45,447 nt of DNA from an uncultured Cytophagia bacterium (GCA_964527995.1 CAZGRP010000025.1:14998-60444), one strand, 5' to 3'; positions 18,871-45,447 are shown, counted from the stretch's first letter. Notes: generated from the sequence alone by a model not told the origin. Program-made: numbers and translations.

Positions 18871-19088
18871 CTCATCTCCTCATCGAAATTGGCCCTGCTA
18901 CGCGAACCCGTATAGCTACAAACCGCCGCCGCCCCTTCGTCGTTCCAACCGCTCACTTCCCTGAAGAAGGGCGTCCCTCGTCGTCTGTGGCCGCTCTCCG
19001 GTGACCCTACGCCATGGCCTCAACGGGTCTGCGACTCTGATACCTTAGGAGCCAGCCGCTCCCGGGCTCACCACTGCTTCCGCAGGAG

Positions 19089-22154: not shown

Positions 22155-22329
22155 TGGAAGACGGGGACGCAAGCCGGATGAGGGGTGATGGCGGGTGGGC
22201 GCGGATTTTGGGCTGTGGATTGCCTACTGCCAACTGCCTCACCCGGGGAGCCGAGGCTGTGCCCAACTGATGACGGCGGCCAACGGAATGAACCCGATAC
22301 CTGGAACCCCAATAACCCACGTCTCAGCC

Positions 22330-23673: not shown

Positions 23674-23691
23674 CGGCAAGGATAGCGCACG

Positions 23692-24768: not shown

Positions 24769-24846
24769 GTTGCCACCGAATGGGTTGGGAGCCACGGCGA
24801 AGGCTGTGCGCTCTCTGAACCAGATACTGCAAAGGGTGCCGTCTAC

Positions 24847-27075: not shown

Positions 27076-27167
27076 GAAAAACGGGGCGCGCAATTGGAAA
27101 ACCGCGTCGGACCACGGGAAGGTCCGTGAGCATGCGCCGACTGCCAGGCTCCTGAAAGGAGGTATGA

Positions 27168-28442: not shown

Positions 28443-28445
28443 GTC

Positions 28446-31400
28446 ATGCTGCTTCGGCGTTTCGGCACATTTCTCCGTATTCTGTCCGCATTATTGATCG
28501 CAAGTCAACCACTATGGGCACAGGGGCCTGCGGTTGTCTACGAAGCCTACACGTTCAGGCAGGATTTCGAGAGCGGCGAGAACACCGGTTGGGCCAGCTA
28601 TCCACCGGCGCAGGACACCGCCTACGATCCCGGCCTCTACCCCACCTCGGAGACGCATCCAGCCGGCAGCCAATATGCGCTGATGCGCGAGCGCCGGCAG
28701 GGATTCGTCGGCCCGCTCGATATCGGCGTGATCCGCAAAGTGCGCCTGCGTGTCACCGAACAATCCACCCTGCGATTCGATTTCAATCTCAAAGACTACG
28801 GCGGCGCCAGCAGCTTCGAGGCCGTCGTCGCGGCTGCCGACGGCAAACAGTATCACTATGCCGTGCCGGCCTGGCAAAGCGGCCAGTGGCAGACAGTCAC
28901 AGCCCCACTCTCCAGGTTTGTGGCCCAGGGACAGGCTCTGCCCTCTGGAGCGGAAGTGCAGGCGATCTATTTCAAGGCGACCATCCCGGAGAGCGACCCG
29001 GATGTCGTCTATCGACTGGCTGTCGACAATGTCGAGCTCACAGGGCAGCGAAAGGCCGACTTCCAGATCTTGCAGCCCGAAACCGCCTACCTGGAGCACT
29101 GGCACCGCTGGGTTTCAGTCAGGCATTATCACCGCGGCGAGAATGTGCTGATTCAGGTAACGCCGCCGAAAGCAGCCGGTCGCCTGAAGGAAGCCTGGGC
29201 CAGCCTCTACGCGCCGAACGGCGCACAGGTGGTGAAGAAGAGGCGTTTGCAACGCGTTGACACAGGATCCCCGGTCGGGCGGTGGGGTACCTCAGGGCTG
29301 TACCGCATCCGCTCCAACGATCCCTTCGGAATCTGGCGAGTGGAGGTTGGCGGTAAGGATCGCCGTGGACGGAGCATTTCTACCTCGATGACCTTCTGGG
29401 TGACGCCTGAGCCTGGCCGCCTGGGTCATCCGCGGCTTTTCTTCAGCGCCAACGACGTCCCCCGCTATCAGGCCCTCGCCGCCGGTGCCGGCAAGCAGCT
29501 CTGGCAAAAGCTCGTCGATAAGGCGGCGAAGCTGAGGCAGGAACTGAACCTCGACCGCATCCGGGGAGCACAGATCGGCGCCATGGACCGGCGCTTCCTG
29601 CTGCCGACTCTGCGCGGATATTTCGACATCATCTCCCCGCTCACTGACTTTCTGGGCACCAACTCTATCGTGTACGCCATCACCGGCGACGATACGGTCG
29701 GCAACGCTCTGAAAGATGCCGTGCTGGCCGCGGCGCAAATGGAACAGTGGACCCCTCCCTGGTTCGTAACCCGCGGCCAGCCGACTTATTATCCCATCGG
29801 CCGACTGGCGTACCAGGTAGCCTTCGCCTACGACGTGCTCTACAACCGCCTGAGCCAGGAGGAACGCCAGGTGATTCGGGACGGGCTGAGGCGTCTGATC
29901 ATCCAGCCGGCATATCAGGAGTATGTCGTGGACAATCGCGTCCCCTTCAGCACCAGCAACTGGATCTGCCACGTCACTGGCGGCGCACTGCTGGCCGCGA
30001 CCTCCATCTACGGAGACGATCCAAATCAGGGAGATCTCGAGCCCTACCTTTCCGGACTGCTGGCAAAAATGACCACCGTGATCTCCTCCACCCTCGGACC
30101 GGCCGGAAGCTGGGGCGAAGGCTACAGCTATGAACGTTTCGCCTTCGAATCACTGACCCCGGCGCTGGCGGCGCTGGAACGAAATTTCGACATCCGCGTT
30201 TTCGACCGAACTCCTCTGGCGAACGCCTTGTACTTGCCGCTCTATGCCTACAGCGCGCCCGAATTGCTCGATTTCGGAGACACCTCAGATCATCTCTACA
30301 GCAGCGGTCCCTTCGCCTGGCTGGCGTGGCGTGCCGCAAACCCCTACTGGAAATGGTTCAACGAGCAGGCTGGTAGGAACGATGTGCAGAGCTTTATCTG
30401 GTTTGCCCCGGAGTTGTCCGCGAAGGCTCCAGCCGATCTGCCAACCTCACGCTACTTCCCCAAAGTGGGCAGCGCTGTATTTCGCACCGGATGGTCGCCT
30501 GACGACATTCTCTTCCACTTCCGTGCCGGGCCGTTCGTCAACCATCAGCACTTCGACCAGGGCAGCTTCCTGCTGCAGGCCTTCGGCGAGGCCCTGGTGA
30601 CCGAAGGCGGTAAGAGCCACTACTACGACGACCCGTACTACCAGACCTACTTCATCCAGGCTGCGGGTCACAACACGGTGCTGATCAACGGCAATCCCGG
30701 AAGCCAGCGCAGCGGTGATCTAAGAAGCGACGCGGTCGCTCTGGACAGCTCAGCAGCCATCACCGACCACCTGACCACACCGTTCCTCGACATGGTCTCC
30801 GCCCGCCTCGAACGCCTGTACCGTGGGAAACTCAGTCGGTTCGAACGCACGGTTCTCTTCCTGAAGCCGGACTACTTTGTCATCTTCGATCGCCTGCGCT
30901 CAACCGGCGAGCCGCTCACCTATGACTGGCTGCTGCACGGTCCCAGGTACGATGGCCTACGAGTCAACACCGCGTATGCGGAAATCGCCGGCAAGCGGGC
31001 GAGTCTCCTGGTCAAGGTGGTCGCGCCTTCGGACGCACAGGTGGAAAGGAAAGAGGCACCCATCCCCATCGCTGAGGTGCTGCACCCAGAGTCTCCTGGC
31101 CTGCGAGTCCCGGGTTACTTCCAGGTGAGCAACCCCACGCCGAGGGTGAGCGAGGAGTTCCTCGTGGTTCTCTACCCGGAACGCCGCCCCGCCACCGATG
31201 GCGCGGCAGAGAGGCAGATGCAGCGGTTGGCCCAGCGGGTTGTGAGGATCGAGGCAGAGGGTTTCGTCGGCGTCGAAGTGACTCGCGGCGAGGCTGTCGA
31301 CCGCATCTACTTTCGCAGCCAAGACGGGAAGCGGATTCTGCAGGATGCCGATCTCACAGCGGATGCTGCTGCTTTGGCTGTCACCCGGGAACAAGGAGCG

Positions 31401-31685
31401 CTGCGACGCGTTTTCTTGCGCAGCGGCACCTTCGTTCAAGTCTCCGGCGAAAAGCTTCTGGCCACGGATCGGCCCCTGACGGCAACAGCCCTGCTGACGC
31501 AGGGGCAAGCCCGATGGCAGTTCAATTCGCCCGAAGCCACCAGTGTCTCCCTCACCCTGCCTGCCGCACCGGGCAGCGTCAGGATGGACGGGAAGCCTGT
31601 TCGGCGAGTCAACTTCAGCAAGAGCGAGGGGCGTCTGCGACTCTACCTCCCGGCAGGGCAACACAGTCTCGAACTAGCGTACTGA
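28446..31685 (+). CDS. secreted heparinase II/III-like polysaccharide lyase family protein with N-terminal beta-sandwich and alginate-lyase-like (alpha/alpha) domains
   Basis: 1079 aa. Signal 'LRILSALLIASQPLWAQG'. C-terminal block 'VNHQHFDQGSFLLQAFGEALVTEGG...AAGHNTVLINGNPGSQR' matches the heparinase II/III-like domain (H..D.GSF / HNT). The preceding (alpha/alpha) toroid region begins 'HPRLFFSANDVPRYQ'. Confidence 0.65.
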   Translation: MLLRRFGTFLRILSALLIASQPLWAQGPAVVYEAYTFRQDFESGENTGWASYPPAQDTAYDPGLYPTSETHPAGSQYALMRERRQGFVGPLDIGVIRKVRLRVTEQSTLRFDFNLKDYGGASSFEAVVAAADGKQYHYAVPAWQSGQWQTVTAPLSRFVAQGQALPSGAEVQAIYFKATIPESDPDVVYRLAVDNVELTGQRKADFQILQPETAYLEHWHRWVSVRHYHRGENVLIQVTPPKAAGRLKEAWASLYAPNGAQVVKKRRLQRVDTGSPVGRWGTSGLYRIRSNDPFGIWRVEVGGKDRRGRSISTSMTFWVTPEPGRLGHPRLFFSANDVPRYQALAAGAGKQLWQKLVDKAAKLRQELNLDRIRGAQIGAMDRRFLLPTLRGYFDIISPLTDFLGTNSIVYAITGDDTVGNALKDAVLAAAQMEQWTPPWFVTRGQPTYYPIGRLAYQVAFAYDVLYNRLSQEERQVIRDGLRRLIIQPAYQEYVVDNRVPFSTSNWICHVTGGALLAATSIYGDDPNQGDLEPYLSGLLAKMTTVISSTLGPAGSWGEGYSYERFAFESLTPALAALERNFDIRVFDRTPLANALYLPLYAYSAPELLDFGDTSDHLYSSGPFAWLAWRAANPYWKWFNEQAGRNDVQSFIWFAPELSAKAPADLPTSRYFPKVGSAVFRTGWSPDDILFHFRAGPFVNHQHFDQGSFLLQAFGEALVTEGGKSHYYDDPYYQTYFIQAAGHNTVLINGNPGSQRSGDLRSDAVALDSSAAITDHLTTPFLDMVSARLERLYRGKLSRFERTVLFLKPDYFVIFDRLRSTGEPLTYDWLLHGPRYDGLRVNTAYAEIAGKRASLLVKVVAPSDAQVERKEAPIPIAEVLHPESPGLRVPGYFQVSNPTPRVSEEFLVVLYPERRPATDGAAERQMQRLAQRVVRIEAEGFVGVEVTRGEAVDRIYFRSQDGKRILQDADLTADAAALAVTREQGALRRVFLRSGTFVQVSGEKLLATDRPLTATALLTQGQARWQFNSPEATSVSLTLPAAPGSVRMDGKPVRRVNFSKSEGRLRLYLPAGQHSLELAY

Positions 31686-31698
31686 CCAAGGAGCAACG

Positions 31699-32727
31699 AT
31701 GGAGAAGTTGGGTATTGGAGTCATCGGACTCGGCATCATGGGCCGGCAGTATCTCACCGTGTACCAGCGAAATCCCAACACCGAGGTCCGCGCCGTGGCC
31801 AATCGTTCGTCCCAGCGACTCGCCCAGGTGGCGTCGGACTTCGGTATCGATGAGCGGAATCGATACCAGGACTACAGGAAGTTGCTGGAGCGAGCCGATG
31901 TCGATGCGGTTTGCGTGGCCACTCCCGATTTTGCCCACACCGAGATCGTGCTGGACGCCCTCGACGCCGGCAAACACGTGCTCGTGGAGAAACCGATGAC
32001 AACTTCCACTGCCGAGGCCGACCGCATCGTTTCCAGGGTGCGGGACACAGGGCTGAAGCTGCAGGTGGCGTACAATCACCGCTGGCTGCCGGTCTACTAC
32101 CACGCGCACTCCCTCATCAAAAGTGGCGAAATCGGCGATCCGGTCATGGGATTCGCCCGCAAGAACGACACCCTCTTCGTTGCCACAGAGATGATCAACT
32201 GGGCGGCACAAACCTCGCCGACCTACTTCCTGAACTCCCACGATGTCGACCTCATGCGCTGGTACTTCGACAGCGAGGCGGTGGAGGCACGGGGCTACGG
32301 CCGTAAGGGGGTCCTCAGCGCCCGTGGCATCGATGCTTACGATGTGGTGCAGGGCCAGGTGAAATTCGCCAACGGCGCCTTCGCCACCTTCGAGTCCGGA
32401 TGGATCTATCCGAACACCTTCCCGACCATCGTCGACTCCTTTGTGGAAGTGATCGGCACGCGAGGGCATCTACATCTGCCGCGCAAGGCAGAATCGATGG
32501 AGATGAGCACTGAGAAGGCCTTCACCTACCCGCGGACTCTGTTGTTCAACGACATCTTCGGCCAACTCGGCGGGGCTTTTCCCGCCTGCCTGAATCATTT
32601 CGTCGAGTGCATTCTGCAGGACCGTGAGCCGGTAACGAATGCTGTCGAAGGCCGCCAGGTGACGGCGATCCTCGAGGCCATCATGACGTCGGTGGAGCGG
32701 GGCGGTGAGACGGTGAAGGTGAAGTGA
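31699..32727 (+). CDS. Gfo/Idh/MocA-family oxidoreductase (3 of 3)
   Basis: 342 aa. 'LGIGVIGLGIMGRQY', 'GKHVLVEKPMT'. 13 bp after the lyase-like gene. Confidence 0.8.
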   Translation: MEKLGIGVIGLGIMGRQYLTVYQRNPNTEVRAVANRSSQRLAQVASDFGIDERNRYQDYRKLLERADVDAVCVATPDFAHTEIVLDALDAGKHVLVEKPMTTSTAEADRIVSRVRDTGLKLQVAYNHRWLPVYYHAHSLIKSGEIGDPVMGFARKNDTLFVATEMINWAAQTSPTYFLNSHDVDLMRWYFDSEAVEARGYGRKGVLSARGIDAYDVVQGQVKFANGAFATFESGWIYPNTFPTIVDSFVEVIGTRGHLHLPRKAESMEMSTEKAFTYPRTLLFNDIFGQLGGAFPACLNHFVECILQDREPVTNAVEGRQVTAILEAIMTSVERGGETVKVK

Positions 32728-32799
32728 CGGCAGCAATGACTGGAGACAGGCGTAACCAGGACCGAGAACCATGGCCAATACCGGAGGAAAAGAGAGCCG

Positions 32800-33735
32800 A
32801 TGAGACTGCTGACGTTTGAAACGAAAGGACAAACACGGATCGGGGCGCTGATACAGGGTGACAGGGTTGTCGATCTCAACCGCGCCGCCCAGGAGCTGCT
32901 CGGTCTCTCAGGAGGGGCACCTCTGGGTGAGGACATGCGTGCATTCCTTTCGGCCGGAGAGGGTGCCGCGCAGGCTGCCGCGCAGATCATCTCTCGAATC
33001 GAAGAGCTGCTCGACTCGAATGCCGCGGCTGTTCCAGCGGACACTCTCTTCGATCTGGCGGCCGTGAGGCTGCGTGCGCCCATCACCAATCCTCAGAAGA
33101 TTCTCGCGGTGGGACTCAACTACCGCGATCACTGCGAGGAAAACCACCTCGACCCGCCGGAACACCCGATCATGTTCGCCAAGTTGACGTCCGCCGTCAT
33201 CGGCCCTGGTGACCCCATCTTGTGGCCACCCGAGGTGACCGATCAGGTCGATTATGAAGCCGAGTTCGCCTTCGTGGTGGGCCGGCAGGCGCGTTCCATC
33301 TCTGTCGACGAGGCCCTGGACTATGTTTTCGGGTATACAATCCTCAACGACGTCTCGGCGCGCGATCTGCAATTCGCCGACGGCCAGTGGGTGCGGGCCA
33401 AATCACTCGACACCTTCTGCCCCATCGGCCCGACGCTGGTCAGCATGGACGAGTTCCCCTACCCTCCTGCGCTCGAGATCAGTTGTAGCGTCAACGGCCG
33501 CAGGCTGCAACATTCCAACACCCGCCACCTGATTTTCGGCGTGGCCGATCTGCTGAGCTTCATCAGCCAGACCTGCACCCTCTATCCAGGGGACATCGTT
33601 TCCACCGGCACACCCGGAGGCGTCGGCTACTACCAGAAGCCGCAGGTCTTCCTGAAGCCGGGCGACGAGGTGACGGTTGAAATCGAAGGACTCGGCGCGC
33701 TGACCAACCCCGTGGGAACGTGGCGGCGGGAGTAG
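32800..33735 (+). CDS. fumarylacetoacetate-hydrolase (FAH) family protein, likely a 2-keto-3-deoxy sugar-acid dehydratase/hydratase
   Basis: 311 aa. 'KILAVGLNYRDHCEE', 'YEAEFAFVVG', 'GYTILNDVSARDLQ', 'GDIVSTGTPGGVG' are characteristic FAH-fold blocks. Confidence 0.75.
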   Translation: MRLLTFETKGQTRIGALIQGDRVVDLNRAAQELLGLSGGAPLGEDMRAFLSAGEGAAQAAAQIISRIEELLDSNAAAVPADTLFDLAAVRLRAPITNPQKILAVGLNYRDHCEENHLDPPEHPIMFAKLTSAVIGPGDPILWPPEVTDQVDYEAEFAFVVGRQARSISVDEALDYVFGYTILNDVSARDLQFADGQWVRAKSLDTFCPIGPTLVSMDEFPYPPALEISCSVNGRRLQHSNTRHLIFGVADLLSFISQTCTLYPGDIVSTGTPGGVGYYQKPQVFLKPGDEVTVEIEGLGALTNPVGTWRRE

Positions 33736-34691: not shown

Positions 34692-36956
34692 ATGCGCCCT
34701 CGTCTGCCGTACCTCCCCGTCATCCTGCTCTACCTGCTCGTGTTTCCGTGGAAGGCTGAGGCAACCAATCCGCCCAACAAGGGTCGCTTTCCCAAGGGCT
34801 TCTGGACCTCTGTGCGTGGCGATAGCCTGCTGATGAGCTACGGAGACCCTGGGTGGGTCAAGAAAATGCAGCACCGCCGACAACTCCGGCTGGATATGGC
34901 ATTGGGAAAGGGCCTCGGCTACGCCCTGCAGTCCGACACCTTCTACGTGCCCGTGCTTCTCGGGCAGTACAGCGACAGCAGTGCCACCTTGCCAGCGCAG
35001 GACTTCCAGAATCTCCTGTTTGACAACAACCCCACGGGAACACTGACCGACTACTACGACGAGGTCTCCTACGGGCAGCTCCATGTCACCGGCACGGTCT
35101 ACGGCTGGTTCACGGTCGACAACGGTCAGTCCTATTACGCCAGCAACAACCACGGCCGCAACTCGAACTTCCCACAGAACGGCGCCGGCTTTGTGCGCGA
35201 CCTGGTAGCCAAAGCCGACCCGACCGTGGACTTCAGCCAGTTCGACAACGACGGCCCGGACGGCGTACCCAACTCGGGCGACGATGATGGCTTTGTGGAC
35301 GCTGTGATCGCCGTCTTCGCCGGCGCCGGAGCGGATTGGAAGCCGGCGAACGACAACCTGTGGCCTTTCCAGGGTTCACTGGGCAGCAATGCCTACACCA
35401 CCAACGACCCTTCGGCCAATGGCGGCATGATCAAGGTGAACACCTTCATCGTTTGCCCGGAAGAGGCGGGGAGCGGCAGCGGGAACAATCAGATCCGCCC
35501 CATCGGCGTTTTCGCTCACGAATTCGGCCATGTTCTCGGCCTCCCGGACCAGTACGACCGCACCGACGCCTCTGAGCCGCCGGACTATAACGATTCGGAA
35601 GGCCTTGGAGAGTGGTGCCTCATGGCTAGCGGCAGTTGGGGCGGCGACGGCAACCATTCCGAGAAGCCCGCCCACATGTGTGCCTGGGGCAAGATCCAGT
35701 TGGGATGGTTGACTCCGACCATCCTAACGCAGGACCGCAGCGGCCTGACCATCCCGCAAGTCGAGACCAACGCCTCGGCCTACCTTCTATGGGAAGATGG
35801 CTATCAGTGGAGTCGCTATTTCCTCCTGGAGAATCGCCAGAAGGTCGGCTTCGACCAGTACCTCAACGGTTCGGGGCTGTTGATCTACCACGTCGATGAG
35901 AACCGGCGCTGGGGACGTATCCGATGGTCTTCGGGCCCTGTGAACGACGACGAAACCCACAAGTTGATCGACCTCGAAGAAGCCGACGGTAGAGCGGACC
36001 TGGACAACAACATCAACCGGGGTGATGCCGGAGATCCCTTTCCAGGGACCACGAACAACCGTGCCTTCACCGATGCCACAACCCCGAACAGCCGCGACTA
36101 CGATGGCAACCCCACGGGCGTCGCCGTTACCAACATCAGCGATTCTGGGCCGACGATAACGGCGGATGTGAAGGTGCGTATGCCACTCGGCTACGCCCTC
36201 GTCTACGATGAAAACGGCATCACTGGATGGGGCTGGGGGTTCCAGAACCCCGCCGACAGTTGGGGTGGAGTGCGGTTCACCGCAACCAAGGCGGGAACGC
36301 TCGCCGCCCTGGATGTGGGCTTCCGGGCTTCCTCAACCGATTATGAGATCAAGGTTTACGACCGCCTGGCGGGATCCACACCACAGAACCTGCTGGCCAC
36401 TGTATCCGGCCACGCCGATGCTGCCGGATGGTATACCATCCCGATCCCCAGCAATACGGTTGCGCTCGGTGACAACGACGACTTTTTTGTCAGTCTGAAG
36501 ATCGCCAACAAAGCCTTCGCCATCTCCTACGACCCCTACGGCCCCAAGTCGATGCGCTCCTATTGGTCCCCCGATGGAGTGACTTTCGATAATTCGATCA
36601 GCACCAACTCCAGCGGGGGCGACATCAACATCCGAGCCCGTATCCGGACACAGACGACCACTGCAGTCGCGGATCGGGCTTCAGGCGGGCCGTACCGCTT
36701 CGATCTTCGGCAGAACTACCCGAACCCTTTCAACCCGGGCACTGAGATCCGCTATGAGCTGCCTGCTGCTGGAAAGGTCGTGCTGGAGGTCTATAACCTG
36801 CTCGGCCAGCGCGTCGCCACACTGGTGGACGAACCTCAAGCCGCCGGAGACCACGCGGTTCATTTCGAGCCCAGGAATCTGCCGAGTGGGATGTACATCT
36901 ATCGTTTGAAAGCAGGCCGGTACATAGAGTCGCGCAAGATGCTGTTGTTGCGGTAA
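34692..36956 (+). CDS. M6-family (immune-inhibitor-A-like) zinc metalloprotease with T9SS C-terminal sorting domain
   Basis: 754 aa. Signal peptide. 'VFAHEFGHVLGLPDQYD' HEXXH zincin motif in an InhA/M6-like context. C-terminal 'NYPNPFNPGTEIRYELPAAGKVVLEVYNLLGQRVATL...GMYIYRL' is a TIGR04183-type T9SS domain. Confidence 0.7.
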   Translation: MRPRLPYLPVILLYLLVFPWKAEATNPPNKGRFPKGFWTSVRGDSLLMSYGDPGWVKKMQHRRQLRLDMALGKGLGYALQSDTFYVPVLLGQYSDSSATLPAQDFQNLLFDNNPTGTLTDYYDEVSYGQLHVTGTVYGWFTVDNGQSYYASNNHGRNSNFPQNGAGFVRDLVAKADPTVDFSQFDNDGPDGVPNSGDDDGFVDAVIAVFAGAGADWKPANDNLWPFQGSLGSNAYTTNDPSANGGMIKVNTFIVCPEEAGSGSGNNQIRPIGVFAHEFGHVLGLPDQYDRTDASEPPDYNDSEGLGEWCLMASGSWGGDGNHSEKPAHMCAWGKIQLGWLTPTILTQDRSGLTIPQVETNASAYLLWEDGYQWSRYFLLENRQKVGFDQYLNGSGLLIYHVDENRRWGRIRWSSGPVNDDETHKLIDLEEADGRADLDNNINRGDAGDPFPGTTNNRAFTDATTPNSRDYDGNPTGVAVTNISDSGPTITADVKVRMPLGYALVYDENGITGWGWGFQNPADSWGGVRFTATKAGTLAALDVGFRASSTDYEIKVYDRLAGSTPQNLLATVSGHADAAGWYTIPIPSNTVALGDNDDFFVSLKIANKAFAISYDPYGPKSMRSYWSPDGVTFDNSISTNSSGGDINIRARIRTQTTTAVADRASGGPYRFDLRQNYPNPFNPGTEIRYELPAAGKVVLEVYNLLGQRVATLVDEPQAAGDHAVHFEPRNLPSGMYIYRLKAGRYIESRKMLLLR

Positions 36957-37043
36957 TCAGAAATCGATGCGCTGCAAGAGCCTTCCGGCGATCTGCGGCA
37001 TTGCGGCGGGACGATGCCGCCGGGGAGGGCACCTCGAAATGAA

Positions 37044-37077
37044 AACGGCCCTACCTCACAACAGAGGCAGGGCCGTT
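37044..37077. terminator. strong GC-rich hairpin (AACGGCCCT-acctcacaacagaggc-AGGGCCGTT, extendable by CCTC/GAGG). Candidate bidirectional terminator between the convergent M6 protease (+) and small HTH gene (-).
   Basis: 9-bp perfect stem read directly. On the minus strand it is followed by TTTTCATTTCG (U-rich). It lies 88 bp after the M6 stop and 29 bp after the HTH-gene stop. Confidence 0.55.
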
Positions 37078-37105
37078 CCGCTTCAAAACCGGAAGCCTGC
37101 GCGCA

Positions 37106-37411
37106 TCATCTCCCCAGGATATCGTGCCTTCTGAGACCGGCGTAGTCGATCAGCCGCCAGAGAATCTGCGTCACCACCTGGTGGCACCTCTGCCGGGTGA
37201 GGCCGCGGCTTTCGCCGATCTCGGCGTAGGTCTTGCCGGCGAAGGCATACTCCTCGAAAATCTCCAGATTGCGTTGAACGTTCCGAGTGAACCCCCACAA
37301 CGCTTTCTCTGAGGTTTCCTGAGAGCCGCCCCTTTGCAGCCGGCGGTATTCCTTCTTGCAGATCTCGAACTCTTTCTGTGTCAAGCCGTAGGGTGGCCGT
37401 CTGCGGTTCAT
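37106..37411 (-). CDS. small stand-alone sigma-70 region-4-like HTH protein
   Basis: 101 aa from ATG 37411; the longer ORF-track version overlaps the tRNA and is rejected. 'AGKTYAEIGESRGLTRQRCHQVVTQILWRL' resembles sigma-70 region 4 / LuxR-type HTH. Lys-rich, lower-GC region, no clear SD. Followed by a strong terminator hairpin. Confidence 0.35.
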   Translation of the reverse strand: MNRRRPPYGLTQKEFEICKKEYRRLQRGGSQETSEKALWGFTRNVQRNLEIFEEYAFAGKTYAEIGESRGLTRQRCHQVVTQILWRLIDYAGLRRHDILGR

Positions 37412-37529
37412 CTTTGCCGAGAGAGGATGTTCGACAACGGGGCAGAAAGAAGAAGCAGCGACGTGTCCGCCGCCACAGTTTCGGGCATGATCCAGGTCGC
37501 TGCTGGCAGAGCTTCCAGGCGCGACTTCC

Positions 37530-37617
37530 GTGGTGCCGGGGGCGGGACTCGAACCCGCACGGGGGTGAACCCCACTGGATTTTGAGTCCAGCGCGTCTAC
37601 CAGTTCCACCACCCCGG
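37530..37617 (-). tRNA. tRNA-Leu (anticodon CAA), class II with long variable arm, CCA encoded
   Basis: Reverse complement folds as a cloverleaf. Acceptor stem GCCGGGG/CCCCGGC. Anticodon stem CTGGA/TCCAG with loop CTCAAAA. Variable arm TGGGGTTCACCCCCGT. T-arm GCGGG-TTCGAGT-CCCGC. 3' ACCA. Confidence 0.85.
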
Positions 37618-37629
37618 CAAATGCAGTGC

Positions 37630-37658
37630 AAAATTACGCAATGGCGGAAACAATGTCA
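37630..37658 (-). promoter_or_regulatory. near-consensus sigma70 promoter for tRNA-Leu (TTGACA 37658..37653, 17 bp spacer, TAATTT 37635..37630; tRNA 5' end 12 nt downstream)
   Basis: Read directly on the minus strand immediately upstream of the tRNA. Confidence 0.55.
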
Positions 37659-37847
37659 AGTGCCAATCGACGCAATTGCCAGCAAATCGAGTGCCTCCTC
37701 GTGCGCCACCCCGCACGCCTGACCTCAACCACCTGCCAGCAGAAAATCTGTGACCGCCCTCCCCGCCCACGCGATGACCGCAGCGGCTCTCCTGCATCTA
37801 TGGCTGAATCGCTCCGCGCAAAATCGCAGCCTGAGATCTCCCCAAAA

Positions 37848-39023
37848 CTACAATGAAGCCAGCTCCCGGTTCAGGTCACCGGTTTCAAAGCGCTTGAGCG
37901 CAAAGGGCGACAGGTCCAGGCTCTCCGCCCGCCCAGTGGCGATCCACTCGCTGAGCAGCAGGCCGACCGCCGGACTATGCATGACGCCATGGCCCCCGAG
38001 CCCCGTAGCCAAGAGGAACCCGCCCACTCCTGATTCGCCTAAGATGGCGTGGTGATCGGGCGTATCGGGGTAGAGTCCGGCCCAGCATCTGGAAAAGTCG
38101 ATGCCGGCCTCCATCAGCCGAGGAAAACGCGTCTCGACCTTCGGCGCAATGCGCTCGATGAAGTCGGGATCGAAGCGAGCATCGAACCCGGCCGGCTCAT
38201 TCGGGTCGGTCCACGCCAGGGCGCACCCCCTGCCCTCGCGGCGCACCAGCAGGCCAGTGTCCATGTCGATCGTCATCGGGATGCGTCGCGGCCAGTCGGG
38301 GGTGGGCCCGGTGACCGCGATGTTGCTGCGGATCGGCCTGACCGGAAGGTCGACTCCCGCCCAGCCAGCCACTTGGCGGGCGAAGGGGCCGGCCGCATTC
38401 ACGACCCAGGAGGCAGCAATGGAGCCGCGGTCGGTTTCGACACCGACGACGCGGCGTCCTGAGAAAATCAGTCCCGTCGCCCGAGTTCGCGACAGCATCA
38501 CCGCCCCTTTGTTGAGCGCGCGCGTGTAGAAGGCGTTGGTCAGTCCGCCAGGATCGATGAAGCCGTCTCGGGCCCCGAAGCTACCACCCACCAGGTCATC
38601 GGTGCGGCAATAGGCCAACCGGTCACGAAGTTCCTGGGCTGAGAGCAGATCGACTGCCACACCGAGGTGGCGCTGGAAGGAAACGGCGCGTCGAAGTTGG
38701 TCGAAGGTTGGTTTGGCAGCGGTCAGGAACAGGTAACCGGCTTTGAGGTAGCCGGACTGTTCCCGCATCTCATCCTCCATGGAATCCAGCTGGTCCATGG
38801 ACAGCAGCGACATGCGGATGTTGGCCGCAGTCGTGAATTGAGCACGAATACCGCCGTTGGCCTTGCTGGTGGAGCCGGTTCCGGGGAAATCCTCCTTTTC
38901 GATCAGCACCACCCGCGTGATGCCGCGCTGGCACAGAAAGTAGGCGATGCTGCATCCAATCACCCCGGCGCCGATGATGGCTACGTCTGCTTGCTGCACG
39001 AACGTCAAATCTCTTCCTCTCAC
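37848..39023 (-). CDS. FAD-dependent oxidoreductase (DAO / glycine-oxidase / sarcosine-oxidase-beta-like)
   Basis: 391 aa. 'DVAIIGAGVIGCSIAYFL' dinucleotide-binding motif, 'GYLFL' and DAO-fold C-terminal region. Confidence 0.7.
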   Translation of the reverse strand: MRGRDLTFVQQADVAIIGAGVIGCSIAYFLCQRGITRVVLIEKEDFPGTGSTSKANGGIRAQFTTAANIRMSLLSMDQLDSMEDEMREQSGYLKAGYLFLTAAKPTFDQLRRAVSFQRHLGVAVDLLSAQELRDRLAYCRTDDLVGGSFGARDGFIDPGGLTNAFYTRALNKGAVMLSRTRATGLIFSGRRVVGVETDRGSIAASWVVNAAGPFARQVAGWAGVDLPVRPIRSNIAVTGPTPDWPRRIPMTIDMDTGLLVRREGRGCALAWTDPNEPAGFDARFDPDFIERIAPKVETRFPRLMEAGIDFSRCWAGLYPDTPDHHAILGESGVGGFLLATGLGGHGVMHSPAVGLLLSEWIATGRAESLDLSPFALKRFETGDLNRELASL

Positions 39024-39068
39024 GTCGTCACGCTCGCTCGAAGCCCGGCGCCAGCCGCCTCGCTGGTG

Positions 39069-39986
39069 TCAGTCGAGAAGCTTGGCCTGGCGCAACCACT
39101 CCAGTCCGCGGCGCGCTTCAGCAGCGCTCTCCTGCGACCGCAGTTCGACGACGCGCAGCGCCCCAGGAGGCAGCATCTTGGCGATCTTGCTGAAGTCGAT
39201 TTCACCCTTGCCGGGAGCGAGATGATCGGTGCTTCCTTTGGCGTCGTGGAGATGCACGCCGACGAGCTGGTCCCTGTAGGCAGCCAGATAGTCCTGTTGA
39301 GAAGCAAGCCCAAGCTTTTCCGACACGTGGGCGTGCCCGGTGTCGTGCCAGTAGGCCACCGGCGCGCCTTCGAAGTAGCGGAGCAGGAGACCCACTTCCT
39401 CGAAACTGGGGATCTCCTCGAGATAGAGCCGGTTCTCCACCCCGAGCACGACTCCCTGCCTCTCAGCCGCCGGAATCAGCGCCTCGAGACTGAAGAGCAC
39501 CGCGTCGACAAAAGGCTGTTTTTTCCTCTCACGTTCCAGGCGGGCCCTGGTGAGGTAGGCCTGCACTTTCTCGTCCTGCACCAGCCCGTGATCGATCGCT
39601 TCCTTCAGCCGGGCGCCGTCGACCTCCATCTCCACTCGCCCGAGATGAAGCACCACCGCTTTCGCCTCGAGGGCGTTGGCCAGCTCGATGGTTCGCTGGG
39701 TCAGTTTCACACCCGTGGCGCGGTGCTCCGAATCGACGCTGGAGAGGAAGAAAAGATCCCCGGAGGCCTCCTCAGGCGAGAATTCCGGTGGCAGCGGAAA
39801 GTAGTTATGCAGGCTGACCACGGACACTCCTCGCTGGCGCAGCAGCGGGCGCATTTCCACAAAGGTCTTCTCGGTGATGCGGTAGTCCAGCTCGAGGGCT
39901 CGAACGCCGAGGCGCTGGATTTCATCGAGCAGCTTTGCGGCGGAGCGAATCCGGGAAGAAGACCAGCTTGTGGACATGCCCCACAT
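39069..39986 (-). CDS. sugar-phosphate isomerase/epimerase (xylose-isomerase-like TIM barrel, AP-endonuclease-2 fold)
   Basis: 305 aa. 'LGVRALELDY', 'AKAVVLHLG', 'HLHDAKGSTDHLAPGKGEIDF' metal-site blocks typical of the family. Confidence 0.65.
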   Translation of the reverse strand: MWGMSTSWSSSRIRSAAKLLDEIQRLGVRALELDYRITEKTFVEMRPLLRQRGVSVVSLHNYFPLPPEFSPEEASGDLFFLSSVDSEHRATGVKLTQRTIELANALEAKAVVLHLGRVEMEVDGARLKEAIDHGLVQDEKVQAYLTRARLERERKKQPFVDAVLFSLEALIPAAERQGVVLGVENRLYLEEIPSFEEVGLLLRYFEGAPVAYWHDTGHAHVSEKLGLASQQDYLAAYRDQLVGVHLHDAKGSTDHLAPGKGEIDFSKIAKMLPPGALRVVELRSQESAAEARRGLEWLRQAKLLD

Positions 39987-40068
39987 CTTCTATCTCCAGG
40001 GTAGTAGCAGCTATGCGGTCGGGTTAGCGATCCAGAGAGGTTCCTGCGGTCTCAGAGCACCGGACGGA

Positions 40069-41337
40069 TCAGCGGGTACTGCCAGGCTGTCCACTTTGGG
40101 CTTCGTTTGAGTCCGCCAGCGCTTCTCTCTGCTCCCAGATCTTCTCGATGGCGCGGACGATGTCGTGCATGTCCTCGAGTTCGCCGAGGAGCACGCTCTG
40201 TGTCAGCCAGACGGCCTGTTCGTTGCATGCAGCCTCGGTGTTGGGAAGATCGATGTCGCGGTAGTCGACGCCCACGTCGAGCGCGGCGCCACGCGAACCG
40301 AAGGCACGGTTCTGGAAGAGAGGTTGCCGGTATAGCGGCAGCGTGTACCCGGGGCTGGCAGGAATACCCTCGGCCCGCAGTGCCTTGATGAAGCGTTGTT
40401 TCGGAACACCGTCAAAGGTCTCCGAGTCATAGCGGAAGATGTAGAGATGGTGGGCGTGGCGGGTCACTCTTTCATCTGGTGGCAACGGCCCAATGCCGGG
40501 AAGTTCAGACAGAGCGCGGTCCAGAAAACGGGCGTTTGCCTGGCGCCGCTGGCGCATGGGCTCATAGCGGTCGAGCTGCACATTCAGGACGGCGGCTTGA
40601 AACTCTGTCATGCGAAAGTTGCCACCGAGATAGTGGTGCTCGTACCAGGCCCCCTCGGTCGTGCGACCACAATTGGAGTAGGAGCGCGCGAACTGCGCCA
40701 CGCTGTCGTCATTGGTGAGGATAATGCCACCCTCTCCAGCGGTAATATTCTTGGACGATTGAAAACTGAAACCAGCGGCAGTGCCGAAGGTGCCTACCGG
40801 CTTCTCTTTCCACGCCGCGCCCCACGCCTGTGCAGCGTCCTCCACCACAATCCACCCATGCCGCCCGGCCACCGCCGCAAGACCATCCCAATTCACCGGG
40901 CGGCCGCCGAAGTGGACTGGCATCACCGCTCGGGTCTGCGGAGTCGACCGGCGCTCAGCATCCTCCGGGTCCAAATTGAAGGTGTCGAGTTCGATATCGG
41001 CAAAGATGGGAACCGCACCGGCATCGAGGACGGCGGTGGCTGTGGCCACGAAGGTGTAGGCCGGCACGACAACGTGGTCGCCGCGCCCTATGCCGGCGGC
41101 CTGCAAGGCGATGCGCAGGGCGGTTGTACCGCTATTCACACAGATGCCAAAGCGCGCTTCATGCATGCCAGCAAAGCGCTCCTCGAAATGCCGCACTCGC
41201 GTGCCTTGACGCATGCCCCACTGGCCACTGCGAACCACATCCGTCAGGGCATCGATTTCCTCCTGTCCCCAAACCGGCCAGGACGGAAAGGGGTTCTTGC
41301 GGATCGGTTTACCTCCCAGAATCGCCAGACGGCTCAT
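40069..41337 (-). CDS. DegT/DnrJ/EryC1/StrS-family PLP-dependent sugar aminotransferase (paralog 2)
   Basis: 422 aa. 'VVVPAYTFVATA', 'FSFQSSKNITAGEGG', 'PVHFGG'. ATG at 41337 directly abuts the stop of the upstream class-V PLP gene. Confidence 0.8.
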   Translation of the reverse strand: MSRLAILGGKPIRKNPFPSWPVWGQEEIDALTDVVRSGQWGMRQGTRVRHFEERFAGMHEARFGICVNSGTTALRIALQAAGIGRGDHVVVPAYTFVATATAVLDAGAVPIFADIELDTFNLDPEDAERRSTPQTRAVMPVHFGGRPVNWDGLAAVAGRHGWIVVEDAAQAWGAAWKEKPVGTFGTAAGFSFQSSKNITAGEGGIILTNDDSVAQFARSYSNCGRTTEGAWYEHHYLGGNFRMTEFQAAVLNVQLDRYEPMRQRRQANARFLDRALSELPGIGPLPPDERVTRHAHHLYIFRYDSETFDGVPKQRFIKALRAEGIPASPGYTLPLYRQPLFQNRAFGSRGAALDVGVDYRDIDLPNTEAACNEQAVWLTQSVLLGELEDMHDIVRAIEKIWEQREALADSNEAQSGQPGSTR

Positions 41338-42678
41338 CTAACTCTCCCCTGCAATTTGTTTGACGGCCTCCAGAAGGCGGTCCACCTCGTCCTCGTTGTT
41401 GTATACATGGAGTGATATGCGCACAGCATTCAGATTGTGCTCGCTGACCGGCCGAACGCGCATCTTGAATTCCTTCCCCAGCCGCTGAACGATCTTGCTG
41501 TGGTCTTGTTCGATCACTCGAAACGTGACAATGGAGGCCGAATCGCTGTCGCTGGTCGGCGTCAATAGCTGCACCCGCGGAATCCCGGCCAGCCCTGTTT
41601 TGAGTCGATGGGCCAGACTGCGGCCGTGGGCCTGGAGCCGGTCCATGCCGATCATTTGCAGAAAGTCAACCGCCGTGGCCAGTCCCAGCGGCAGGGCGAC
41701 ATTGCGTGTGCCGTACTCGGTGGAGACGGCATCGTCGCGGTACTCCAATTCCAGCCGGTCGAGATCATAGACGGTGTTCGAATAGGCGCCGACGAAGGTC
41801 GGTCTGAACACGCCAGCCATCCGCCGGGAAACATACACCACCCCGGTCCCCTTCGGCCCCAGCATCCACTTGTGGCCGCTGCTGGTATAGAAGTCGCACC
41901 CCAGGTCGTGCAAATCCACCGGCACCATGCCCAGCACCTGGGCTCCGTCGATCGCGGTGAAGATGCCTTTGGAACGAGCCAACTCGCAAACCTGTTTGAT
42001 GGGCAACACCTGGCCGAGCGTCATGGTGATGTGGCTGATGGCGAGAACGCGGGTTCGCGGCGTAAGCATCTTTTCGATGCGATCAAGGGTCTCGGCCGCG
42101 TCCTTCCCCGGTTCGAAGAGCCGGACGCGCAGGCCATCGTCTTTGGCGCGTCCCAGCCACGGCATGGCACCGCCGGGGTGTTCGTGAGTGGTCATGAGGA
42201 TCTCATCGCCCGGCTTCAGCGGCACCCCGCGCGCGATGATGTTCATTCCCTCGGTTGCATTGCGGGTGAAGGCGATCTCGGTCGGATCGGCGCCGACAAA
42301 AGATGCGACCTTCTGTCGGGCCTCTTCGAAACGATGATGCTCGGTCTCCGAAATGCGATTGATCTCCGTAGAAACCTGGTGAACCGTGTCCAGCACCACG
42401 AAGGGAGAAGGCCCCAGCCCGCCGGTGTTGAAGTAGGCGCGATCGTGGGTCAGCGGGAACGATTCACGCACCGCACGCCAGAATCGCAGGTCGTCATGGT
42501 CAGCCGAACCGAGTTCGGCAAGGCCGGAAAGGCCCTCCCGGCGCCTGGCAGGCGCACCCCAGACGCGGCTCCATGGCATGAGCGACGCAAGAACAGCCCC
42601 CTGTAGACCCCGAGCAAAGAACCTTCGGCGAGAAATCGAACGCATTCCGATAGACCTCCGCGATTGGATAGGGTTCAA
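41338..42678 (-). CDS. Tat-exported class-V aminotransferase-fold PLP enzyme (cysteine-desulfurase / isopenicillin-N-epimerase-like)
   Basis: 446 aa. Twin-arginine signal 'SRRRFFARGLQGAVLASLMPWSRVWGAPA'. 'AYFNTGGLGP', 'TTHEHPG', 'SSGHKWMLGPKG' (PLP-lysine) class-V blocks. Confidence 0.65.
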   Translation of the reverse strand: MNPIQSRRSIGMRSISRRRFFARGLQGAVLASLMPWSRVWGAPARRREGLSGLAELGSADHDDLRFWRAVRESFPLTHDRAYFNTGGLGPSPFVVLDTVHQVSTEINRISETEHHRFEEARQKVASFVGADPTEIAFTRNATEGMNIIARGVPLKPGDEILMTTHEHPGGAMPWLGRAKDDGLRVRLFEPGKDAAETLDRIEKMLTPRTRVLAISHITMTLGQVLPIKQVCELARSKGIFTAIDGAQVLGMVPVDLHDLGCDFYTSSGHKWMLGPKGTGVVYVSRRMAGVFRPTFVGAYSNTVYDLDRLELEYRDDAVSTEYGTRNVALPLGLATAVDFLQMIGMDRLQAHGRSLAHRLKTGLAGIPRVQLLTPTSDSDSASIVTFRVIEQDHSKIVQRLGKEFKMRVRPVSEHNLNAVRISLHVYNNEDEVDRLLEAVKQIAGES

Positions 42679-42681
42679 CGA

Positions 42682-43614
42682 TCAGGATGCCGACAGGTCG
42701 TCCGGCGCCTGTGGGTGCTGCTGGATGAAGTACTCCAGGTCTGCGATGGTATAGACAGGAGCCCCACCCCAGAGCGTGGCATTGAAGGCGCCGACGTAGT
42801 TGGCGAAAGCGGCGATCTCCGCTAGAGTGCCGCCCTGAAGATATTTTGTGATCAGACCCGCTGCGAAAGCATCGCCGCAACCCGTGGTGTCCACAGGATC
42901 GACCTCGATTCCGTGGACGCGCACGTGCTCATCCGGACTGTGGAGCTCGCAGCCGTCCGATCCATAGGTGATGGCCAGGAGTTTGAGTTCGTAGGTTTCG
43001 AGGAGATAGTCCAGGAACTCTGCCCGGCGCAAACCACTGCCGGGCAGGATGTCACGCAACCGATCCGCCTCCTCGCCGTTCAGCTTCAGGATGTCGGCGA
43101 GCGGCAGCGACTCTTTGACGATGTGGCGAGTGGCACCGTCCCAACTGCGCAGGTTGGGGTCGAAAATCTTTACCGCCTGCTTCGCCGCGGTCAGGAAGCT
43201 GCGGATGGTGTTGCGGGCGACAGGGCCCCGCTGCGCCAGTGTTCCGAAGAGCACGGCGTCGCACGTCGTCGCCAGGCGCTCAAGCTGCGAATCGAACTCG
43301 ACGTAATCGAACGCGACGTTCTCCGAACAGCGAAAGCTCGGCACGCCCTTGATGTCGAGCGACACGATCACGGTGCCGGTTCCGTTCTTCCGGTCAACCT
43401 GGATGTAGTCGGTCGGCACGCCGCGGTTGCGCAAAGTGTCGATCAGCTCCTGCCCCATGCCATCGTCGCCCACCCGGCTGACGACGATGCCGTGGTTGCC
43501 CAGCTGGCGGGCGTGAATGGCGAAGTTGGCCGGCGCCCCGCCCAGATGCTTCTCGTTCTGGTAGATGTCCCACAGCACCTCGCCGATGCCGACGACAACC
43601 TTTCCCTGTGCCAA
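42682..43614 (-). CDS. PfkB-family carbohydrate kinase (KdgK / fructokinase-like)
   Basis: ORF 42682..43668 (-); the long form would overlap the M50 gene. Start placed at TTG 43614 with GAGGGA upstream. 'KVVVGIGEVLWD', 'GGAPANFA', 'DTTGCGDAFAAGL' PfkB signatures. Confidence 0.7.
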   Translation of the reverse strand: MAQGKVVVGIGEVLWDIYQNEKHLGGAPANFAIHARQLGNHGIVVSRVGDDGMGQELIDTLRNRGVPTDYIQVDRKNGTGTVIVSLDIKGVPSFRCSENVAFDYVEFDSQLERLATTCDAVLFGTLAQRGPVARNTIRSFLTAAKQAVKIFDPNLRSWDGATRHIVKESLPLADILKLNGEEADRLRDILPGSGLRRAEFLDYLLETYELKLLAITYGSDGCELHSPDEHVRVHGIEVDPVDTTGCGDAFAAGLITKYLQGGTLAEIAAFANYVGAFNATLWGGAPVYTIADLEYFIQQHPQAPDDLSAS

Positions 43615-43630
43615 GAGATCCCTCGTCCGG

Positions 43631-44503
43631 CTAGAAGATGAACGGTTTCGGCGCAAACGACAGCACAAAGATGATGAATGTGATCGCCCCGAGTACCTGT
43701 CGCTTCCTGTCCAACGGCGTCTCGTCCATCGTCGGCGGATGCCGGTAGCCGAAGAAGATCAGCAGCACGACCATCAAAAGCCAGCCCCAAAAGACAAAAG
43801 CACAGATGGCAACGAAGCCAACGAGAGCGACGAGGAAGACGTAACGGCTGCGGCGACCCAGGATGGCGTAGATGATGTGCCCACCGTCGAGCTGGCCGAT
43901 CGGGAGCAGGTTCAGGGCGGTAACAAACAAGCCGGTCCACCCGGCGAAGGCAAGCGGATGCAGGAAGATGTCATACCCAGTTGGCGGCGTCCCCTTGATC
44001 CAGTTGGCGATAAAACTGAAGAGCAGCGAGTCGCCCAGCGAAAAGCCGATGGTGTTCGGCGTCAGAGGCCGAATCTCAGAGAGCTGCAGGCCGAAGATGA
44101 TCGCCGGAATCGTCAAGGCCAGACCAGCGAGAGGGCCCGCGATGCCGACGTCGAAAAGTGCTTTACGGCTGGGGATGCGCGACTCCATGCGGATGACAGC
44201 GCCTAGGGTGCCGAATGGGTTCAGCGGAAATGGCAGAAAGAAGGGCAGCGTCGCTCGGATGCCGTACCGCCGGCACATCAGATAGTGCCCCATCTCGTGC
44301 GCCAGCAGGATGGAGATGATGGGCACCGCGTACCACAACCCGCCTGCAAACCACGTCGACAGGAACGTCAGCACAAAGAGCCCGGCGTTGACCCACGGCT
44401 TGTCACTGCGGAGGCGGGCGAGGATGGGGATTCTTCGATGGTAGGTGTATCCGTTGCCATCGTCCAAGATGACGGGCCTGTATTCGGGGTATTGTTCGTC
44501 CAT
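43631..44503 (-). CDS. site-2-protease-type (M50) membrane zinc metalloprotease
   Basis: 290 aa, multiple TM segments, 'LLAHEMGHYLMCRRYG' HEXXH motif in a TM helix. Confidence 0.75.
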   Translation of the reverse strand: MDEQYPEYRPVILDDGNGYTYHRRIPILARLRSDKPWVNAGLFVLTFLSTWFAGGLWYAVPIISILLAHEMGHYLMCRRYGIRATLPFFLPFPLNPFGTLGAVIRMESRIPSRKALFDVGIAGPLAGLALTIPAIIFGLQLSEIRPLTPNTIGFSLGDSLLFSFIANWIKGTPPTGYDIFLHPLAFAGWTGLFVTALNLLPIGQLDGGHIIYAILGRRSRYVFLVALVGFVAICAFVFWGWLLMVVLLIFFGYRHPPTMDETPLDRKRQVLGAITFIIFVLSFAPKPFIF

Positions 44504-44508
44504 AGAGT

Positions 44509-45309
44509 TCAGTTGCCTTTCTCGATCCGGAGCCGAAGCGTGTCGCCGGCCTGAACCCCCAGAAAGCGCGCAGCGCTGCCCTCTTTGACGGCCAATTCGA
44601 GGAGATCAGCACTGCCTAGAAGCGCCACCGGCACGCCTTGCTCCGCCTCGGCATAGCTGGAAGCCAGCCCTTGCAGTGGCCAGGAACGGTCCCCCACGCC
44701 TAAAGCGATGAAGCGCAGGTCAGCGGCCATCTCAGCCGGTACGTTGGTTATCAAATTTCCAAAGCGATCGACGTACAAAACTGTGGCGATCAGTTCGTCG
44801 CCCCTGGTGACCGGCTGGGGAACCTCGCCGCGAATGTAGTCATCGACCGTCGGCCCGACTTCATCCAGCTCGAGGCCGACGGCCAGGCGGCCTGCAAGCG
44901 GAGCAAAGATGTCACGGCCATGGAAGGTGTGGCTGACGCTAGGGAGATAGAGGCTTGTTTTCTCCACGGCGTGCACTTCGACATTACAATACTCGTGCCA
45001 GATGTATTTCAGCAAGCCGTTGTCCGGCGCCAGGAAAAGATAGCCACCTGCCCGAGCCGCAAGGATGCGGCGAGAGGTGCCCACCCCGGGATCGATCACC
45101 GCCACATGCACGGTGCCGGCAGGAAAGAATCGATGGCTGCAACGCAAAACAAAAGCCCCAGCATCCACATCATGGGGCTTTATACCGTGACTCAAGTCGA
45201 CGATTTGGGCATCCGGCGCGAACCCGAGGATCACACCCTTCATGGTGCCGACGAAGCCGTCCTGTTCGCCGAAATCCGTCAGCAGCGTGATCACTCGTGT
45301 GTCGGACAT
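44509..45309 (-). CDS. SAM hydroxide adenosyltransferase (DUF62, SalL/FlA-fold) family protein
   Basis: ORF 44509..45354. Start placed at ATG 45309. 'VITLLTDFGEQDGFVGTMKGVI' is the DUF62 N-terminal signature; 'VIDPGVG' and 'YVDRFGNLITN' follow. Confidence 0.7.
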   Translation of the reverse strand: MSDTRVITLLTDFGEQDGFVGTMKGVILGFAPDAQIVDLSHGIKPHDVDAGAFVLRCSHRFFPAGTVHVAVIDPGVGTSRRILAARAGGYLFLAPDNGLLKYIWHEYCNVEVHAVEKTSLYLPSVSHTFHGRDIFAPLAGRLAVGLELDEVGPTVDDYIRGEVPQPVTRGDELIATVLYVDRFGNLITNVPAEMAADLRFIALGVGDRSWPLQGLASSYAEAEQGVPVALLGSADLLELAVKEGSAARFLGVQAGDTLRLRIEKGN

Positions 45310-45447
45310 TCCCTCGTGCTCATTCAGACAAAACCGGAACGTGTCCCTCGCCAACCAAACCGGATAACCTCTACTGACAAAAATAGATACATGGCTCTAA
45401 ACAGTCAAGTGTTTTTTCCGCTTCGACACACCTTTCGGCCTTCCCCC

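Follow-up and report, generated by a model that had tools for sequence, protein, structure and literature searches.

The window analysed here is a 45,447-nucleotide stretch of DNA from an uncultured Cytophagia bacterium (GCA_964527995.1, CAZGRP010000025.1:14998-60444), which carries seven genes placed head to tail on its minus strand. In the direction of transcription, these encode a DUF62 protein of the S-adenosylmethionine (SAM) hydrolase type, an M50 intramembrane protease, a PfkB sugar kinase, a class-V pyridoxal 5′-phosphate (PLP) enzyme with a twin-arginine translocation (Tat) signal, a DegT aminotransferase, a xylose-isomerase-like TIM barrel of 305 residues (TIM305), and a DAO-family flavin adenine dinucleotide (FAD) oxidoreductase. 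An earlier note on this DNA had proposed that the kinase, the two PLP enzymes, the barrel and the oxidase form one metabolic module. It is common, however, for loosely related genes to form operon-like strings, and with modest confidence we read this one as a lineage-specific, probably co-transcribed evolutionary mosaic rather than as one dedicated pathway.

Conservation of the gene string

Three censuses were made, anchored on relatives of the class-V enzyme, on relatives of TIM305 and on DegT orthologues, and the contexts of DAO, PfkB, M50 and DUF62 were judged from the same sets of loci. When 80 genome loci carrying class-V relatives were searched with the other six window proteins, TIM305 and DAO were each found at none of them, DegT at four (all KSB1-like), and orthologous PfkB, M50 and DUF62 at one, two and one, respectively. 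Clustering of all open reading frames (ORFs) beside class-V revealed no dominant partner, the top cluster being SSF symporters (17 of 82 loci). Around TIM305 relatives, for which 80 metagenome loci were collected, DegT, DAO and PfkB were each absent from all 80. The usual neighbours of this family are unrelated to sugar or amine metabolism: GGDEF proteins occur at 17 loci and Memo at 10, with TrmFO, AroQ, PepP and EF-P at a few each. DegT orthologues are abundant (54-63% identity, mostly KSB1) and are found in at least seven types of context, but beyond the window's own lineage their loci contain neither TIM305 nor DAO nor PfkB, except for a PfkB gene at locus L003.

Conservation of the complete seven-gene order, suggested in the earlier note as a check, was not borne out. 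The order DUF62-M50-PfkB-(215-residue membrane protein)-class-V-DegT-TIM305 was recovered only at L001 and L163 (72-78% protein identity), to which is added L174, a locus from the same population as the window. The contigs of L001 and L163 stop at 13690 and 12250, about 70-190 bp past TIM305, so that DAO is attested only for the population of the window itself, L174 included. These contig ends may mark a variable or repeated region, occupied in the window by DAO and a tRNA gene. The series DUF62-M50-class-V is also present at the more distant locus L020, and this marks the front of the string as a gene order that was inherited. The DUF62 and M50 genes, left unexplained in the earlier note, are still functionally unconnected to the others, but their position can now be ascribed to descent.

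Could PfkB, class-V, DegT, TIM305 and DAO nonetheless constitute a single undescribed amino-sugar or aminocyclitol pathway, be it catabolic or biosynthetic? This appears distinctly improbable. Beyond the immediate lineage, TIM305 or DAO accompanies class-V, DegT or PfkB at none of 171 loci, and the zero counts around class-V and TIM305 given above likewise do not support the proposed module. The class-V enzyme, which is predicted to be periplasmic, keeps an alpha-carboxylate-binding arginine typical of amino-acid-handling enzymes of the SufS fold, and is therefore unlikely to be a keto-sugar aminotransferase. The unit contains no IolD, IolB, IolJ, 2-deoxy-scyllo-inosose synthase (DOIS) or dedicated transporter, and none of its five enzymes reaches an NCBIfam equivalog cutoff. 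What speaks for such a pathway is DegT, whose ranking with inosose-type and 3-amino-5-hydroxybenzoic acid (AHBA)-type enzymes gives the aminocyclitol analogy some basis, although its margin over nucleoside diphosphate (NDP)-sugar enzymes is modest and no inosose-forming enzyme (DOIS or inositol dehydrogenase) is clustered with it in the unit. Gfo/Idh/MocA genes are found only at 10781-11755 and 31699-32727, on the strand opposite to the unit. No DHQS-like gene was detected in a Pfam scan of 27 of the approximately 31 window ORFs of at least 150 residues (those at 225-1628, 1529-2788, 17898-18956 and 37083-37631 lay outside the scan). The set of IolC, IolE, IolD, IolB and IolJ equivalents that would point to a myo-inositol or rhizopine (iol/moc) system was not found. 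An Amadori or fructoselysine route built from PfkB, TIM barrel and DAO was also considered and rejected, as the matches were sub-threshold or confined to motifs (FrlD, 49.7 bits against a cutoff of 247 and over the N-terminus only; fructosyl-amine oxidases, E about 5e-4 and through the FAD motif only).

Recurrence of class-V, DegT and TIM-barrel genes

A comparative sign of functional linkage is limited to class-V, DegT and some AP_endonuc_2 barrel, an association that has moderate support. Class-V and DegT genes lie 0-2 kb apart in three types of context with different flanks, namely the lineage of the window, locus L003, and a six-gene block of KSB1 bacteria (L004, L007, L009 and L171-L173) in the order memb221-Cyclase-class-V-TIM275-corrinoid protein-DegT. 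In this block memb221 is a membrane-anchored protein of about 220 residues without a Pfam match, the Cyclase is arylformamidase-like and the corrinoid protein is of the methylamine/glycine-betaine type. TIM275, an AP_endonuc_2 barrel of 264-296 residues, stands directly downstream of class-V on the same strand at 7 of 82 loci from several lineages (L004, L007, L009, L039, L058, L069 and L082, the 149-residue ORF of L058 being probably partial), and the 1.26 Mb of sequence flanking class-V yielded only ten AP_endonuc_2-like ORFs, these seven among them. An AP_endonuc_2 gene is likewise found within about 3 kb of the DegT orthologue in four of the seven context types. The interleaved genes are heterogeneous in function (methylamine-type corrinoid protein, arylformamidase-like Cyclase, D-cysteine desulfhydrase-family enzyme), and this speaks against one shared pathway. 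A search of the window for the KSB1 partners (memb215, Cyclase, TIM275, corrinoid protein, class-III aminotransferase, PALP and RidA) found no homologue of any of them.

The same recurrence might be residual synteny, that is, pure inherited gene order in which none of the seven genes is coupled, class-V and DegT included. We hold this to be somewhat unlikely, though much is consistent with it: RidA, GAF-SpoIIE, TPR, DUF62, M50, PfkB, class-V and DegT genes are common to the window lineage and in part to L003 and L002; the genes between and beside class-V and DegT are functionally unrelated, as just described; in four context types no class-V gene lies within 8-10 kb of DegT orthologues of equal identity; and class-V is without DegT at 76 of 80 loci. 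On the other hand, the class-V/DegT pair persists across its three context types even though both flanks change, and TIM275 follows class-V outside KSB1 too, with a strong preference for that position (7 of 10). Coupling is also favoured by the direct contact between the class-V stop codon and the DegT start. Stressed in the earlier note, this contact is real in the window, but it is kept only there and at L001 and L163, two genes lying in between at the other KSB1 loci.

A more specific coupling, which we consider unlikely, would be a two-compartment route in KSB1-type bacteria, in which a periplasmic class-V enzyme, a cytoplasmic inosose-type DegT and an AP_endonuc_2 barrel would process an amino-sugar, an aminocyclitol or an amino-acid-decorated glycan fragment. 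The class-V family would then be a large periplasmic PLP group modifying compounds that bear amino acids or amino groups, and TIM305 would be a non-orthologous stand-in for TIM275. The two barrels are related at the superfamily level only.

Several points weigh against the mosaic that we favour. The tight spacing of the genes, the abutment of class-V and DegT and the presence of only one promoter-like site are also compatible with a true functional operon, and five of the products could plausibly act in the metabolism of sugars or amines, in a window rich in glycan-utilisation genes. Partners encoded over 10 kb away escape the censuses, in which short contigs are frequent. The local hidden Markov model (HMM) recognises no barrels other than TIM275-like and TIM305-like ones, and it therefore gives too low a background density for AP_endonuc_2 genes. 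Finally, a new pathway specific to this lineage would still be compatible with the synteny evidence taken alone.

Two further observations concern the neighbours of class-V and DegT. A RidA-family (Ribonuc_L-PSP) gene is found near class-V at about six loci (L003 7243-7737; L050, L055, L057, L076; L001 1465-1920; L163 80-550), and the L003 copy carries a lipoprotein-type signal, which hints at periplasmic quenching of enamines or imines. In one lineage, at L165/L166 (6430-13277), three URO-D-like (MtaA/methyltransferase-type) genes flank the DegT orthologue, which has a second DegT paralogue after it; combined with the corrinoid proteins of other loci, this arrangement hints at a link between the DegT clade and corrinoid methyltransferase systems.

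The class-V enzyme and its Tat signal

The N-terminus of the class-V enzyme reads ISRRRFFARG followed by LQGAVLASLMPW, which fits an S/T-R-R-x-F-L-K-like Tat motif with its hydrophobic stretch. Residues R6, R7 and F9 are invariant in 25 of 25 aligned relatives (43-78% identity) while the remainder of the leader varies, and an RR-x-hydrophobic motif is present within the first 60 residues of 115 of the 120 best database relatives. Most of the other five seem to be truncated at the N-terminus or called from a wrong start, and one (P0116) appears to carry a Sec-type leader instead. About 50 N-terminal residues of the structural model have low values in the predicted local distance difference test (pLDDT). 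As judged from this conservation, the signal is genuine and no start-codon artefact; the earlier note had conceded that the true start might be an internal methionine, but the invariance of the arginine pair and the phenylalanine refutes this. Export itself is predicted.

The mature domain matches SufS-type folds with template modelling (TM) scores of 0.77-0.85 at 24-31% identity, the best sequence match being 5b7s (6.8e-47). Its PLP lysine, within SGHKW, is kept in all 120 relatives, whereas the persulfide cysteine has been lost: the invariant R396 occupies the position of Cys361 of Bacillus subtilis SufS (C361A entry) in the alignment, the GHH in front of it is missing, the alignment of relatives contains no invariant cysteine, and an R-x-R-x-[IV]-x-E motif replaces the cysteine loop in 116 of the 120. 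The arginine aligned to SufS R376, a residue which we take to anchor the substrate carboxylate, is invariant too, and this suggests an alpha-amino-acid moiety as substrate. Because the lysine and the carboxylate-binding arginine are kept and the cysteine is lost, the reaction would be a transamination, a decarboxylation or an elimination. The enzyme would be loaded with PLP in the cytoplasm, exported folded through Tat, and would act in the periplasm on the alpha-amino-acid portion of its substrate, in the manner of PvdN or PtaA and not by mobilising sulfur.

SufS and CsdA are the best sequence and fold matches, and share with the window enzyme the PLP lysine and the arginine equivalent to R376. 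The differences lie in the invariant R-x-R motif in place of the GHHC loop, in the predicted export, in the absence of a SufE/SufU partner, and in sub-cutoff scores (TIGR01979, SufS, 217 bits against 475.1; PRK09295, 152 against 661). A cysteine desulfurase identity was rejected, an invariant arginine occupying the place of the catalytic cysteine. PvdN and PtaA are established Tat-exported PLP enzymes (PMC6206403), with a class-V/SufS-like fold, the PLP lysine, a twin-arginine signal, no desulfurase cysteine, and periplasmic action on an amino-acid moiety, traits that the window enzyme shares or is predicted to share. PvdN itself matches both as a structure (PDB 5i90, E 2e-31) and as an NCBIfam profile. 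Membership was however rejected, since NF051467 gives 152 bits against a cutoff of 650 and pyoverdine context is lacking, no pvd genes being found among the annotated ORFs of the window; moreover, the class-V family spans many phyla. It comprises 2,303 database matches among the scored candidates and is spread over KSB1, Ignavibacteria, Bacteroidota, Planctomycetota and Gemmatimonadota. With this family alone, and with the PvdN and PtaA precedents (PMC6206403), the earlier description of a Tat-exported PLP enzyme as uncommon was overstated. A kynurenine-pathway reading of Cyclase and class-V in the KSB1 block was set aside, as class-V is exported by prediction and bears only a distant likeness to kynureninase (6e-07). 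The literature searched yielded nothing usable on 8GYH or on the Tat class-V family.

In Ignavibacteria and Bacteroidota (L014-L031, L042, L048, L051 and L066), the class-V gene is accompanied by three Pfam-less proteins of about 530, 659 and 759 residues, two of them with Tat signals of their own, as well as by one or two SSF symporters, an FGGY sugar kinase, an ABC ATPase and a Meth_synt_2 protein. These loci are a candidate uncharacterised utilisation locus.

Layout of the string, the other products and their surroundings

The seven ORFs extend over 37848-45354 (Table 1), and Pfam confirms all seven domain calls of the earlier note, subject to small corrections of start codons. DUF62 starts where it had been assumed to, with MSDTRV in the junction reading. 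PfkB most likely starts at a TTG at 43614 (M-AQGKVVV, giving 310 residues as in L001 and L163) and not at 43668, while class-V starts at an ATG preceded by GGAGG 9 nucleotides upstream, in agreement with the 435-residue NCBI call P0001. For DAO the start is ambiguous within 38999-39023, the L174 copy being called as 383 residues. From DUF62 to DAO the intergenic gaps measure 5, 16, 36, 0, 82 and about 45-60 nucleotides, well in line with the range of 0 to about 82 bp given before, and the TAG of class-V directly abuts the ATG of DegT. No terminator-like site was found in any minus-strand gap of the string, and the promoter candidate 5′ of DUF62 is the sole sigma-70-like site within 37000-45447. 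From the gaps and the lack of intergenic terminators, the seven genes probably form one co-transcribed string, and transcription would run from this promoter-like site through all of them. An Rfam scan returned only the tRNA. Over 6,225 bp covering DegT-TIM-DAO-M6 peptidase, the window is 99.7% identical to L174, which comes from an independent JGI sample, and the arrangement is therefore not a misassembly.

Table 1. Features of the seven-gene string and of the related KSB1 block
Feature	Position	Strand	Size	Basis or remark
DUF62 / SAM hydroxide adenosyltransferase, (R)-SAM hydrolase-like	44509-45309	-	266 residues	SAM_HAT_N 1.5e-51, SAM_HAT_C 5.1e-20
M50 intramembrane metalloprotease	43631-44503	-	290 residues	Peptidase_M50 2e-22; HEMGH, NLLPIGQLDG
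PfkB sugar kinase	42682-43614	-	about 310 residues	Pfam 7.8e-42; DTTGCGDAF
Tat class-V (SufS-fold) PLP enzyme	41338-42645	-	435 residues	Aminotran_5 1.2e-73; SGHKW
Twin-arginine signal peptide (MRSISRRRFFARGLQGAVLASLMPWSRVWG/A)	42553-42645	-	about 30 residues	conserved RR motif; putative cleavage site
DegT/DnrJ/EryC1/StrS aminotransferase	40069-41337	-	422 residues	DegT_DnrJ_EryC1 5.1e-100; GEGG
TIM305, xylose-isomerase-like metal-dependent TIM barrel	39069-39986	-	305 residues	AP_endonuc_2 7.1e-23
DAO-family FAD amine oxidoreductase	37848-39023	-	383-391 residues	Pfam DAO 4.3e-69; GAGVIG
Sigma-70-like promoter candidate, TTGACT-17-TATTTT, 5′ of DUF62	45380-45408	-		consensus match only
tRNA-Leu(CAA)	37531-37618			closes the region; own promoter TTGACA...TAATTT
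KSB1 six-gene block	L171-L173 3125-9230; L007 8381-14373; L009 1058-7052; L004 7442-13475

All seven genes are members of known superfamilies. None of the products reaches an NCBIfam equivalog cutoff, so that all seven assignments are at the family level only. The catalytic motifs read as intact in M50, PfkB, class-V, DegT and DAO. DUF62 scores 191 bits against the NCBIfam (R)-SAM hydrolase, under the cutoff of 350; with the M50 intramembrane protease, it would represent an inherited housekeeping pair. PfkB, whose best PDB match is the fructokinase 2qhp of B. thetaiotaomicron (7e-49), would be a cytoplasmic fructokinase-like sugar kinase.

DegT was rightly called a cytoplasmic PLP aminotransferase. 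It scores 335.6 bits against PF01041 (cutoff 19.8), and its SFQSSKNITAGEGG aligns with the same region of 8gyh. The closest solved relatives belong to the non-nucleotide branch, namely 8gyh, AHBA synthase, and the 2-deoxy-scyllo-inosose and scyllo-inositol aminotransferases (E 1e-57 to 1e-67), as against 1e-52 or weaker for the NDP-sugar enzymes perosamine synthase, ArnB and WbpE. In the cytoplasm, it would accordingly be expected among the enzymes using free keto-sugars or keto-cyclitols. The likeness to the inosose/AHBA type (BtrR, RbmB/NeoB-type enzymes, AHBA synthase) is near full-length and includes the PLP-lysine/GEGG region, but 2-deoxy-scyllo-inosose synthase, inositol dehydrogenase and antibiotic-cluster context are all missing around the window gene. 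Unlike those cluster enzymes, its orthologues resemble a KSB1 core gene that is conserved but turns up in varied surroundings.

For TIM305, the earlier call of a xylose-isomerase-like TIM barrel named the right superfamily. In structure it is a keto-sugar epimerase/isomerase-type barrel, an assignment at the superfamily level, and its activity would be metal-dependent. Sequence likeness to MJ1311, Art22 and YcjR (3-keto-D-glucoside 4-epimerase) is marginal, the MJ1311 match (1.4e-12) covering half of the protein, and TIM305 differs by an extra long helical insertion at residues ~124-177. The literature searched mentions MJ1311 once, in a table that lists it as a predicted homologue of Endo IV. 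The invariant residues of the TIM305 family are strikingly rich in His, Asp and Glu (H60, N61, D77, H114, E184, D215, H218, H245, H247, D248, D254, H255 and E281), and the family is common, chiefly in metagenome-assembled genomes labelled Deltaproteobacteria/Thermodesulfobacteriota. DAO would be an amine oxidoreductase resembling the beta subunits of sarcosine oxidase and proline dehydrogenase, its best PDB match being 1y56_B of that type (3.7e-42), followed by dimethylglycine dehydrogenase and glycine oxidase. In the mosaic that we favour, TIM305, DAO, PfkB, DUF62 and M50 would have been juxtaposed through descent or recent rearrangement.

Elsewhere in the window, a plus-strand run at 20901-33735 resembles a glycan-utilisation locus, with a glucuronyl-esterase-like protein, DUF4434, Nramp, a 1079-residue heparinase II/III-like protein, Gfo/Idh/MocA and FAA hydrolase. 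Upstream of it lie GHL10, an SSF symporter, an aldo-keto reductase, a ROK regulator and several phosphodiesterase/sulfatase-like proteins. Given such genes, some of the seven could plausibly serve in the salvage of sugars or amines. The gene at 34692-36956 (plus strand) encodes an M6 (immune inhibitor A-like) metalloprotease that combines a lectin-like domain with a type IX C-terminal sorting domain. Like a DMFA2_C/FlgD_ig protein encoded at 19089-20732 (minus strand), it points to an organism of the FCB type with type IX secretion. Judged by the relatives, the source lineage would be KSB1-like.

Being unconserved, the seven-gene unit as originally proposed has little significance. The main lead is instead the large uncharacterised family of cysteine-less SufS-fold enzymes with Tat signals, whose genes recur together with those of the 275-residue TIM barrel and of DegT, while in Ignavibacteria the partners include symporters, sugar kinases and large proteins with Tat signals. 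To our knowledge, periplasmic PLP chemistry has so far been documented mainly for the tailoring of pyoverdine by PvdN and PtaA. Should this family prove to be a second and far more widespread group of Tat-exported PLP enzymes, the picture of PLP chemistry in the periplasm would be broadened, and its recurrent partners would provide targets for biochemistry.

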